Part shown: one piece after another, positions 31,593 to 54,455 of the stretch
Layout: the number at the start of each line of letters is the position of its first letter
Position numbering within the stretch: the stretch's first letter is position 1
NCBI GenBank assembly: GCA_951406725.2
Contig: OX597819.1
Location: forward strand, 60,574,001-60,638,000
Length of the DNA: 64,000 nt
Origin: Octopus vulgaris
Lineage: Eukaryota
Direction: 5' to 3'
The notes under the pieces: generated by a model
Database searches by the model: none
What the model saw: only the letters and a program-made list of their open reading frames with translations
Told to the model about the DNA's origin: nothing
Program-made: the position numbers and the translations under genes

Positions 31593-31734
31593 GGCAAGGA
31601 GTTGCCTCTATGACGACAATTGTGTTTAATATTAAGTAGGTGACAGTAACACAGAGGTCAGAAGTAATTCGCTTTCCGACACAGAAAAAGTTTCTCCCAT
31701 AAACATTCTAACTTTTAAGTTCTATTTAATAATC
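31593..31734 (+). promoter_or_regulatory. Conserved core-promoter/5'UTR block upstream of EFHD2 exon 1A
   Basis: The sequence aggagttgcctctatgacgacaat...ttaatattaagtag-gtgaca...acacaga...aagtaattcgctttccgac aligns with the block at about 53124-53216, upstream of copy B. Confidence 0.7.
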
Positions 31735-31901
31735 ATGGCTACAGATGAGCTGTCCAACCTGTTGACTCGTCGCAACAATATCAACGATGCTATCGACGCT
31801 GGTGACACCGTAGAGACGACGTCTAAAATTTTCAACCCTTATACGGAATTTAAAGAATTTACAAGACAAGAAATAAAGGAGCGGGAAAAATTATTTAATA
31901 A
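31735..31901 (+). CDS. EFHD2: First coding exon (copy A) of an EF-hand domain protein D2 / Swiprosin-1 homologue
   Basis: Translates to MATDELSNLLTRRNNINDAIDAGDTVETTSKIFNPYTEFKEFTRQEIKEREKLFN(K). MATDEL..L.RR and FNPYTEFKEF.R..IK..EK.F are hallmark EFHD1/EFHD2 motifs. Start context is aatcATGg, and the exon ends in phase 2 at a consensus AA|GTAAGT donor. Confidence 0.92.
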
Positions 31902-32151
31902 GTAAGTTTCGTTTTCTTTCGTTACAATCGTCGGTGCTTCATGTTTTTCAAAGTGTATATTAATCTTCTTAACCTTTTTGCCTGTTGACGATACGGTCCA
32001 CTATTGATTCATTATCGATATTGATTTCTGTTTCTCTCTCTCTCTCTTAATATATCTGTCTATGTAGGTGTATGTATGTATGTATGTATGTATGTATGTA
32101 TGTATGTATGTATGTATGTATGTATGTATGTATGTATGTATGTATGTATAG

Positions 32152-32184
<33 letters not shown>

Positions 32185-32854
32185 TTCGTATGAACCTGCA
32201 CAGTACAGTTTTAGGTAATCTAAGTGAGAGAAAGTCGGGGCTATAATTTAATGTCTATGTGAATTAAACAAACGGGAAGAATAGATCACAAATGTACATA
32301 AAGAAAAAGATGCCCCGACAAAACACCATGTTATGGCATTCCAGCTGTGACCACCCCGTCTTTTTGAGAGTACATCGTCATGATTCCTTTTTTTTTGTGT
32401 GTGTGTTTTCTTTTGCCTTTTAAAAGAGACAACAGGATTGTGACGAGAAGGCGATTTGTTGATATTTCCGAGAGACAGAGCAGCCGTATAGTATTTTTTA
32501 TTCAGGGAGGAGATGGTTAGTTTAACACTAACACATGGCTTTTGCATGTCTTGTTGCAGAATCAATTTTCTGCGAATTTTGGGACTGAGTACCAGTTTAA
32601 GGAATAAAACGATCTTCTGGTTTTGAGAGGGGAAAATTGTAAATGATTCCATTAAGGGAGCAGGCCACTTGCCCAGATGCATTCACGATGACCCCCTCGC
32701 AAAAGCTTCTATGTGGCCATATGGCTTGTTAGAAATAGCAGCCAAATCTCCATCAAATCAGATAGTCTTAGTTGGAATGCTTTTAATCATAAAGCTACTC
32801 GATCAGAGTTGATGTGGAGCTAAACAGCAGTTAAATTACATACCCCTTTTGCTC

Positions 32855-33150
32855 CCAGTTCATGACTGATGGATGCACCGACAAGCACAAGATTGCACGA
32901 GGGTCCATTTACGGACACTGACTTCCAGCTAGATTGTTTATAGACAAAACTTGCCAAAGGAATAATTATCAGGAAGTGCAAAGTTTCTTTTGATATCCTT
33001 ATCCCTTCTGTAAATGCTGGTCTTCGATACATGCAAACTTTTCTTGAGCTCCTAAGTACATTCCCTTCTTATTGGCCCTGCTTACAGGGATCAGATTGGT
33101 AGTTAATAACAAACCAAGAGTTACGAATTCCTCTTCCTTAATCCACGATC
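32855..33150 (-). mobile_element. Possible very degenerate Penelope-like fragment
   Basis: Weak motifs FVINYQS and IYRRDKDI resemble the PLE linker (PFVxTYHP ... AYRRxKNL). Confidence 0.3.
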
Positions 33151-51363: not shown

Positions 51364-52592
51364 CAAGATAAGAAAATGGAGAAATACATCTAAATCAAAT
51401 ATCAATTACCAGATAATACTCAATCACATACTTTATTAAACCACCACATAAGAGACTGTAGGCTTAAACATAAAAAAGCAGAACAAATCAGTGTACATAA
51501 AGGAATGTACATAAAAAAGTGTAACCCCTATCTCAATTTGTATATATATATATATATATATATTACAAATATATATATATATATATATATATGCACAAAC
51601 ATGCATACACTGTGCCTATCTGGTATTTTGTTGAATATATTTTAGCTGACATATTTAAAATGTATCACCTTTCCATTAATTGTCTGAATATCTTAATGTA
51701 CAATATTTAGTTCTCATTTCATTCGTTTTAATTCACATTGGTTTATTCTACATCTTGTAGAAATAAACAAATAAAAAGTCGTTCTGAGATTCACTAAAGA
51801 TGTAAAATCAGGCTGTTATTACATCTATTATTGATTTTTCTTTTGGCCTGAATCTTAAAGGTGAATGTCCTTTTGACGGTGATTACTATGCCATGGAATA
51901 AGAACAAGTAGCTATATTTGCTAAGATTTTCAAAGTCTGTCTTCTTAGAACCAGGCCCTTAATTAGCATTATATTTACGAGCTGTTAACTTTGGAGCTAT
52001 TTCCCCTCGTTTATCGACCATGCACTTAGCACTTCATCCACACCTGTACAAACACATCCAGTACCATTCCGTACTGTATGGAATCCCGCTTTACTTACGT
52101 TTCTCTTTCCCTTTAACCACTTACCTAATTGAACATTAACCGTTTTAATCATTCGTCCTTTACTCGAACCTAACAAGGCCCGAGAAAGCTGCGGGGTTTC
52201 ACATCTCTGATGAATGTTAAATCATAAAAATGATGCAGATAAATACAAGAAAAAACGAAGAATTTTCTGTTTGCTAAAAACACAAATGTATTAAAATATC
52301 AACATAATACTCTATAGATATCTAAGAATTTATCTTAATTCCAGGACATTTATGGTCTGCAATTTGGAGAATTTTTTTCAAAAAAAGTGAAGAAAAAGAA
52401 AACTTTATTTTGAAACTTTGAGGTGTATTTTTTGCCACACTGTTATATACTATATCCTTATCTCCCAAACTACGACTCTTCAATCCTCTTAACAAAAGAA
52501 AACTGTAAAAAGCCCATCTATTTCTATAACACATGATGCCTACTGTAAAGAGATGTAACACTGGCACGAAGTAGTAGATATGCGTTATTGGA

Positions 52593-52610
52593 GGTGATGA
52601 CGTCATCACC
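52593..52610. promoter_or_regulatory. Perfect 18-bp palindrome containing a full CRE/ATF site (TGACGTCA)
   Basis: ggtgaTGACGTCAtcacc, about 740 bp upstream of the exon 1B ATG. Confidence 0.5.
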
Positions 52611-53123
52611 ATCAAAATTCTTCCTTTTCTTCGCCCACAGCTTCATGATGAAGACAATTGAATAGTTATCGAACATACATACGTTTATAATGAATGAATA
52701 AAGACAAACATCTCGGATCGACTTTAGCTAGCTGTATTTAGTTTTGTTCGTTCTTGTCATTTTATCTGCACAGTGAATCTATCGTTACAAAAGTGGCTGC
52801 GACTACAGACTGAATAGAGTTGCACGCTCGTGCTAGATAGAAATATGGTATATATAGTATATTGGTGGAAGAGGGGAGGGGTGTAAACAAAGAAGTAAAG
52901 TGAAACATAGAGAGGGTGGGAGGGATAGAGAGAGAAAGTGAGAAAGAGTGAGAGAAGAAGGGAGAAAGAAAACGCGCGGGCGAGCGAAATAGAAAGAGAA
53001 ACAACCTTGTGTAATAGACCAGTGTGGAACAGAGACTAGAAAGGCTGTAAGAAAGAGAGAGAGAAAGATTTAATTGGTAACGTTAATTCTTGCTATAATA
53101 GAGAAAGATTTATTGGTTCTTTT

Positions 53124-53335
53124 AGCAACGAGGAGTTGCCTCTCTGACAACAATAATGTTAATATCAAGTAGCGTGACAACACACAGAAGGAATAAGTAA
53201 CTCGCTTTCAGACGCTGCGGGTTTCTTTCTCCTTTACGTTCTGGGATATACGACGAATACAACCAAACCACTTGGGTATTTCACATAAGTTCAATTTGAT
53301 TTTAATTTGTCTGTCTAACATCATCATTCATAATC
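53124..53335 (+). promoter_or_regulatory. Conserved core-promoter/5'UTR block upstream of EFHD2 exon 1B
   Basis: The sequence aggagttgcctctctgacaacaat...ttaatatcaagtagcgtgaca...acacaga...aagtaactcgctttcagac is paralogous to about 31593-31682. Both blocks are preceded by GA-rich tracts. Confidence 0.7.
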
Positions 53336-53502
53336 ATGGCTACAGACGAGTTGGCCACTCTGCTAACTCGCCGCATCAATATTAGTGATGCTATTGAGGC
53401 TGGTGAGACTGTACAGGCGACGGCCAAAGTTTTCAATCCTTACACGGAATTTAAAGAATTTTCCAGGAAAGAAATCAAGGATTTGGAAAAAACATTTAAG
53501 AA
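53336..53502 (+). CDS. EFHD2: First coding exon (copy B) of an EF-hand domain protein D2 / Swiprosin-1 homologue
   Basis: Translates to MATDELATLLTRRINISDAIEAGETVQATAKVFNPYTEFKEFSRKEIKDLEKTFK(K), closer to the vertebrate KVFNPYTEFKEFSRKQIKDMEKMFK. Same length (167 nt), same aatcATGg context and same phase-2 AA|GTAAGT donor as copy A. Confidence 0.95.
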
Positions 53503-54455
53503 GTAAGTCTTGCTTCATTCCATTTATACAGTTCGATCATCGATATTATTTTTTCTCTTGTCTTTCTCCACCCTTTATCTCTCTCTGTCTCTAGCTCTTC
53601 CTCTATCTAGTGTTTTAATTGAATTTAATTTTATGTCAATGTATGAAAAAGGAAAATCATCAAAATCCTTTTTGCTTCAAACAATAACGAAAACAATATT
53701 CAATTTTCTTTTCTTTTTTTTACACGTGTTAGCAGTATTGATTTTTTTTGTTCCCTCTCTGCTCTGTTGTTAGGCAATTTGCGGAGATGTCATCTCCTTC
53801 ACAGCTGCTGCTTGACATCTCGTCAATGGTCCTTTCTCCGATAGATTGTATTGCCTTTATTAGTTATACGTTGCATACATCTATCTCTAGCACCATTCTC
53901 ACGACACCACTTATCTCCTGCATTTGTCTTTTACTCGGAGACGCGGAAGATTCTTTCCTCTAGACATTTAAAAACACTGTAGAAGGAAATATAATTATTG
54001 TCTCAGAAGAATATATTTAGATCCATTGATAAAGCGAATATATCTATCTATCTAGATATAAAATAATCGAAATGCATTTGTGTTGGTTCGCAAACAAAGA
54101 CAAGCAGAATAAACAACTCGTTGGGAAGCGAATCTGATGTAGTTTCATCGTTGTCATTGTCTTGGCCGTGGCACCAACAGCTCAGACAGTAGCAGGACTT
54201 CGACGCTCTGATTTCGATGTTGGTTGCAATTTAACTTTCACATACTAACTCAGTTCCTTCTGTTATGTACTAATTTGGCGGTATAACTAAAATGCCAACA
54301 GAAATTGCATGCTATTATATTTAACATAAACTTGGTATACAGTTACATATAACTAATTTTGTTCATTCATGAGTAAATAAACGAAAAAAAAGGGGGAAAT
54401 GCTACTTTCTGTGTTACATAAGACTAGAAAAGGGCACAACATGCATGCATGCATA

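Follow-up and report, generated by a model that had tools for sequence, protein, structure and literature searches.

Two probable alternative first coding exons of a single EFHD2/Swiprosin gene in Octopus vulgaris

Exchange of the N-terminus of a protein through tandem duplication of a 5' coding exon is known in human, where 39 of 236 substitutions by tandem exon duplication are N-terminal (PMC8373072), and in Drosophila, where silver is a case with two initial exons (PMC3228551). The protocadherin and UGT clusters are treated as the same mechanism as these N-terminal substitutions (PMC8373072). The present analysis concerns a stretch of 64,000 nucleotides (nt) of Octopus vulgaris DNA (the window, C6:60574001-60638000; plain coordinates below are window positions), which contains two homologous coding exons, A and B, of EFHD2/Swiprosin. 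Like human KCNAB1 and ARRDC2 and Drosophila silver, octopus EFHD2 has homologous 5' coding exons with their own starts and shared downstream exons. It is very probable that the locus is a single EFHD2/Swiprosin gene whose first exon was tandemly duplicated, and which yields two isoforms through the shared exons 2-4. An earlier note on this DNA had proposed one gene with two alternative N-terminal exons, and this was borne out: there is one set of exons 2-4, and exon A is spliced to exon 2. Its hint of novelty was not. The architecture belongs to a known class and both products are already RefSeq models, so that the locus is unsurprising as architecture.

Two first coding exons and one set of downstream exons

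The features of the gene are the following; the last three lie beyond the end of the window.

31511..31901, + strand: first exon A (distal, derived), transcribed extent seen in the assembled contigs of four runs
31597..31680, + strand: conserved non-coding block, copy A, within the transcribed 5' leader
31735..31901, + strand: coding part of exon A (residues 1-55 and 2 further nt)
31902..31907, + strand: donor GTAAGT of exon A, used and joined to exon 2 in the contigs
53131..53213, + strand: conserved non-coding block, copy B, a sequence match to copy A
53336..53502, + strand: coding part of exon B (proximal, ancestral-like)
53503..53508, + strand: donor GTAAGT of exon B, probably used, judging from the contig fork and the RefSeq models
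53503..64000, + strand: start of the 39,209-nt intron from the B donor toward the shared exons
C6:60666712-60666859: exon 2, 148 nt
C6:60670693-60670830: exon 3, 138 nt
C6:60673449-60673580: coding part of exon 4, 132 nt with the stop codon

The coding parts of A and B were found where the earlier note had placed them. Each has 167 nt, starts with ATG and ends in phase 2, with AA before the donor GTAAGT, and both are on the + strand. The recomputed identity was the value given before, 39/55 amino acids, and 133/167 at the nucleotide level, with no indels and no stops. The pair has the form expected of alternative first exons, namely tandem homologous 5' coding exons, each with its own ATG and with an identical donor phase. 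The ratio of nonsynonymous to synonymous substitution rates (dN/dS), which had been proposed as a check, was 0.21 by the NG86 method (codon bootstrap 0.08-0.51; 1993 of 2000 replicates usable). Many synonymous changes had been claimed: 11 of the 39 codons for the same residue do differ, but 12 of 14 fourfold sites are unchanged, and the dS value is therefore noisy.

Exons 2-4 were found neither between A and B nor in the rest of the window by tBLASTn. This agrees with the earlier observation that no exon for the next part of the protein lies between the copies or in the 10.5 kb after B. Exon 2 begins 39,209 nt past the B donor and 60,810 nt past the A donor. No second set of exons 2-4 was detected, either by tBLASTn in the window plus 16 stretches around the gene (221.5 kb, free of any N) or by genome search. 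The genome search with the exon B protein gave two matches, A and B, among three candidates. With the full Argonauta protein, 15 matches were obtained among 41 candidates; five were strong, all on C6 and in the order A, B, exon 2, exon 3 and exon 4, and the other ten were weak EF-hand matches of 30-38% identity elsewhere. A single downstream exon set is thus shared. An exon-1 profile built from 80 sequences revealed no further exon 1 in the 221.5 kb, and the suggestion of more cassettes outside the window found no support in the protein, DNA, motif or profile searches. It should be mentioned that the genome searches score the best candidates only, and that very decayed copies of exon 1 elsewhere may escape them.

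Splicing of A or B to exons 2-4 in silico gave open proteins of 194 amino acids. The A product was identical to XP_029637332.1 of O. sinensis, and the B product to XP_029637331.1, an identity that places the DNA in the O. vulgaris/O. sinensis group. Both products are listed as RefSeq isoforms X1 and X2, in O. sinensis (XP_029637331.1/332.1) and in O. bimaculoides (XP_014778636.1/637.1). These are automatic models only and are apparently undiscussed; no literature on this locus, as Swiprosin/EFHD2 in octopus, was found in a search that mostly left subscription journals outside.

Evidence for the use of exon A came from sequencing runs. All sampled words of the leader and exon of A are contained in 20 of the 24 listed runs; words missing from runs X21-X24 are no evidence. 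Contigs from four of the 24 runs, from four studies, were mapped on the window at 30900-32030. In each of the four, a single contig covers A as far as 31901 and then passes into exon 2, of which it contains the first 28 nt, so that the junction skips B and spans 60.8 kb. Because of this skip, and because the genome search showed no processed copy, the source of these contigs is considered to be spliced RNA. The earlier note had named the absence of transcripts from copy A as a reason to abandon its proposal; exon A was transcribed and spliced in 4/4 runs. The coding 167 nt are only part of this exon. The spliced contigs reach 31901 from 31582, 31582, 31558 and 31511, and exon A is therefore at least 320 nt long.

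All four contigs end 28 nt into exon 2. In an assembly from words of 31 letters, a contig extends 30 letters beyond a merge, minus those that the merging branches have in common. At this word length the fork would be expected at 28 nt if the second branch is B, which has two terminal letters in common with A, at 30 nt if it is the intron, and at 27 nt if it is a repeat-derived exon described below. Since the contigs stop at 28, a second 5' sequence with a B-like end seems to join exon 2 in the same samples. B is thus likely also spliced to exon 2, as the RefSeq models suggest. The proposal that donors 31901 and 53502 lead to a common acceptor is in this way directly seen for A, in all four runs, and indirectly indicated for B by the fork.

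Divergence of the two exons and its effect on the protein

Sixteen of the first 55 residues differ between isoforms A and B, which are identical from residue 56 on; the two 194-residue proteins would differ only within residues 1-56. By alignment, the exchanged exon takes in the N-terminal segment and the PxxP motif as well as the helix that enters EF-hand 1, whereas the Ca2+ ligands and the coiled coil are encoded by the shared exons; the E/K-rich C-terminus from exon 4 appears to correspond to the EFHD coiled coil. [quoted passage not shown] The Pfam models EF-hand_7 and EF-hand_1 score above cut-off in both isoforms, and matches to structure chains reached E values of 1e-43 for the EFHD2 core 5i2l and 6e-49 for EFHD1 7clt. 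Human EFHD2 shows Ca2+-dependent bundling of filamentous actin (F-actin) and dimerisation (PMC3744483, PMC5156911), and by analogy the octopus Swiprosin would do the same. A single-sequence AlphaFold model of A was left unused (mean predicted local distance difference test score 53, no coordinates). As a separate observation, the N-terminus of vertebrate EFHD2 (P0084, P0208) carries an EL..KL.RR motif twice per protein; the motif occurs once in molluscs, and in octopus twice as alternatives.

Exon A encodes T43, Q45, E49, R50, L53 and N55, where exon B has S43, K45, D49, L50, T53 and K55. These positions were compared in 166 non-Octopus homologues, drawn from listed matches and clusters, a redundant set weighted towards vertebrates and molluscs. 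All 166 carry M, F, Y or L at position 50 (human Met97), where B has L and A has R. At position 45, 158 of the 166 have K, and the Q of A was seen once. At S43, D49 and V32, B matches the majority state. The earlier description of the replacements as mostly conservative therefore overlooks L50R and K45Q, both at near-invariant sites. The Pfam EF-hand model begins at residue 49 in B, with residue 50 as its second position, and at residue 51 in A. The second position of this model would pack into the core of the EF-hand, and T53L may offset L50R in A. A functional difference is predicted from the presence, in the exchanged part, of actin-binding site 1 and of the helix entering EF-hand 1: A might differ from B in EF-hand 1 packing, Ca2+ response or F-actin binding.

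Both exon types are found in the annotations of O. sinensis and O. bimaculoides. The O. bimaculoides exons are identical to those of O. vulgaris at 51/55 residues for A and 54/55 for B. A third lineage of the A type (P0230) comes from a further assembly, and T43, Q45, E49, R50 and N55 are identical in all three A-type lineages found. Among the proteins retrieved, one type each was present in Argonauta hians and in a cuttlefish-type cluster (P0003/P0123, CAE1256079.1), which we take to be Sepia pharaonis. In a tree of 16 rows and 55 columns, the A types come out as a clade (100/99) whose stem measures 0.32, and B stays near the base; A, B and Argonauta are set apart from the cuttlefish-type sequence with 83/84. 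From these sequences B appears ancestral-like and A derived. The leader and coding first exon would have been tandemly duplicated, likely within octopods after the octopod-decapod split, dated to about 275 million years ago (PMC9068888); B would have kept the ancestral sequence, while A would have changed quickly and then been retained. The duplication is apparently limited to octopods. A survey of 167 full-length proteins, weak and mostly of cluster representatives, gave 419 pairs with at least 95% identical core, and among the 25 pairs lowest in N-terminal identity that were viewed, swapped N-termini within a species occurred in Octopus only. A scallop protein, P0225 of Argopecten irradians, is named isoform X3, which means at least three models in that species.

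There is a substantial chance, somewhat short of even, that the exchange has only a minor effect on the protein. In this explanation the architecture is the same, the duplicate was kept solely because the promoters split expression, and the changes in A are drift that was later frozen. Residues 1-69 of human EFHD2 show little or no actin binding, and a 97-240 fragment bundles normally (PMC3744483); A and B show no change in FNPYTEF.EF, in K48 (human Lys95) or in any Ca2+ ligand; and the possible compensation of L50R by T53L would point in the same direction. On the other hand, R50 occurs in 0/166 and Q45 in 1/166 homologues, yet T43, Q45, E49, R50 and N55 were kept in three A lineages. A consequential change would be a rewired EF-hand 1 in A, with Arg at an otherwise hydrophobic helix position, the conserved Lys lost and a Leu gained one turn further on. 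Where both isoforms are expressed, A/B heterodimers would be able to form through the coiled coil that they share. It is conceivable, although we hold it only tentatively, that a second Swiprosin isoform of this kind, with its own promoter and dimerising with B, tunes Ca2+-dependent actin bundling by cell type.

Promoters, leaders and the remaining alternatives

The blocks at 31597-31680 and 53131-53213 are identical at 69/85 columns (E 9e-18). The 2.8-Gb genome contains exactly two occurrences of a 24-nt motif from the block, against 0 for a control, and a DNA search of the genome with A returned A itself and the two parts of B only. The block is no dispersed repeat. The match between the two upstream non-coding blocks noted before was thus confirmed, but not the promoter role given to them: because the A contigs cover the block unbroken, copy A belongs to the transcribed leader and is not an upstream promoter. 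The block might serve as a downstream element of a promoter or act in translation. No shared RNA fold was detected in it (z 0.09 for A and -1.76 for B; the folds differ), and a search of the window against Rfam gave no match at gathering thresholds. Outside the block and exon, the two copies are unalignable save weak intron hits, the best in simple repeats. CpG values at the starts of A and B, 0.80 and 0.86, are below the window 90th percentile of 0.97 and uninformative.

Several side features of the leaders were observed. Short upstream open reading frames are present in both, at 31579-31639 for A (ATGs at 31579, 31585 and 31610) and at about 53157-53200 for B (one ATG near 53157); read by eye, they start at non-matching positions. 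GA-rich low-complexity tracts lie directly upstream of the blocks, at 31350-31575 and 52865-53065, alike in composition only; they may mark promoters. In run X13, a low-depth unspliced contig of 176 nt lies upstream of exon A at 30994-31169, and represents either DNA carry-over or upstream transcription.

In the favoured reading, each copy would likely have its own promoter. Promoter choice, not splice choice, would pick the exon, and the donor nearest the cap would be the one spliced to exon 2. An improbable alternative is that one promoter serves both, A and B being internal exons behind a common upstream exon, or A being internal as in the O. vulgaris model P0213. This model (257 amino acids), the single GenBank one retrieved, joins L024:4668-4802 and window 16895-16957 to A as two upstream exons, and drops the first residues of exon A. 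A TAAG/TTC stretch in both leaders could act as an acceptor. However, in 4/4 runs the contig of A runs without a break from 31582, or from a point further upstream, as far as 31901; no joint occurs in it and no loose 5' end is listed (a single row of X13 is missing at a repeat), and no upstream exon joined to A was seen in these four contigs. A splice from A to B would break the contig at the donor, where the contigs are unbroken; in addition, A and B each have an ATG and a copy of the leader block of their own. The 5' end of exon A is at or upstream of 31582. Since the contigs run straight through the leader of A, the 5' end of P0213 is likely a gene-prediction error.

That A and B belong to ordinary tandem paralogues, or that one is an orphan pseudo-exon left by a partial duplication, is very improbable: only the general frequency of tandem duplicates speaks for paralogues, whereas the genome holds one exon 2-4 set, with none between the copies, as the earlier note had asked to be verified; the splicing of A to this set refutes the idea for A, and both exons are intact in the annotations of two further species. 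An assembly artefact, two haplotypes placed in tandem, which the earlier note had named as a possible refutation, can practically be dismissed, since the copies are 80% identical with unalignable flanks, no N occurs in the window or the 16 neighbouring stretches, and both types are annotated in O. sinensis and O. bimaculoides.

Some points weigh against the reading of one gene with two separately promoted and functionally distinct first exons. None of the runs is on record as RNA, and their RNA nature is a guess; start sites, strand, level and tissue cannot be read from the contigs; and the link of B to exon 2 through the fork assumes the behaviour of an assembly at k=31. No homology was seen in the 3 kb upstream of both blocks, so that a duplicated upstream promoter is not visible. 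The dS between A and B is uncertain, which makes dN/dS merely a guide, and the tree rests on 55 columns, with the position of Argonauta not settled. Finally, actin bundling in vitro was normal for a human EFHD2 mutant without residues 1-96 (PMC3744483), and most of the exchanged region may therefore matter little for bundling.

Two further elements should be mentioned. A repeat-derived stretch at C6:60639920-60640026 (L018:1920-2026) has an in-frame ATG, a 33-codon frame ending in WESIWLI and a phase-2 GTAAGT donor. It gave 34 BLAST hits in the DNA of the window region, itself included, and the X3 model of O. bimaculoides (P0216) begins with a shorter version of it. It is a possible exonised third first exon, without the PxxP motif and helix 1; the four runs gave no sign of its use, the fork being at 28 and not 27. 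The window is also filled, on both strands, with a dispersed repeat of about 400 nt, whose copies are about 75-87% identical (for example 1-417, 9088-9463, 13725-14143, 29791-30207 and 44756-45141). This is likely an octopus short interspersed nuclear element.

Comparison with known systems

Like the vertebrate clustered protocadherins, UGT1A/UGT2A and the chelicerate sDscam, octopus EFHD2 combines a variable first exon with constant exons, and the locus works like the protocadherin and UGT clusters in miniature, yet it is no array. The likeness to a protocadherin or UGT1A array drawn earlier did not hold, as two homologous cassettes only were found genome-wide and in the 221.5 kb, compared with 9-21 in such arrays; UGT2A has two. 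The octopus gene exchanges 55 residues of a cytosolic protein, whereas the protocadherin and UGT clusters exchange a whole ectodomain or substrate domain. Stochastic choice per cell is a feature of protocadherin-type clusters, to which octopus EFHD2 is likened by its gene layout. The protocadherins of cephalopods themselves do not use a variable-first-exon layout (PMC9068888).

Octopus EFHD2 is a new case, in gene and lineage, of N-terminal substitution by tandem exon duplication. It differs from the human catalogue, in whose main text and supplement EFHD gave no hits (PMC8373072); more than 90% of the human events are as old as teleosts or older, whereas the octopus case is apparently octopod-limited. 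Its value lies in a young N-terminal exon duplication with clear asymmetric divergence, and in a natural variant pair for Swiprosin biochemistry, of which the derived helix of A is the part worth a bench test.

Compared with vertebrate EFHD1/EFHD2, the octopus gene likewise has four exons and a long first intron (PMC3036668), and its protein shares the PxxP motif, two EF-hands and the coiled coil with EFHD2/Swiprosin-1 and EFHD1/Swiprosin-2. Vertebrates diversified the N-terminus by duplication of the whole gene, EFHD1 and EFHD2 differing most at residues 20-80 (PMC3036668). In octopus the N-terminus is varied inside a single gene, and here the differences extend into helix 1 of EF-hand 1. If the proposed role of isoform A is true, exon duplication would have reached in octopus what vertebrates reached by the EFHD1/EFHD2 duplication.

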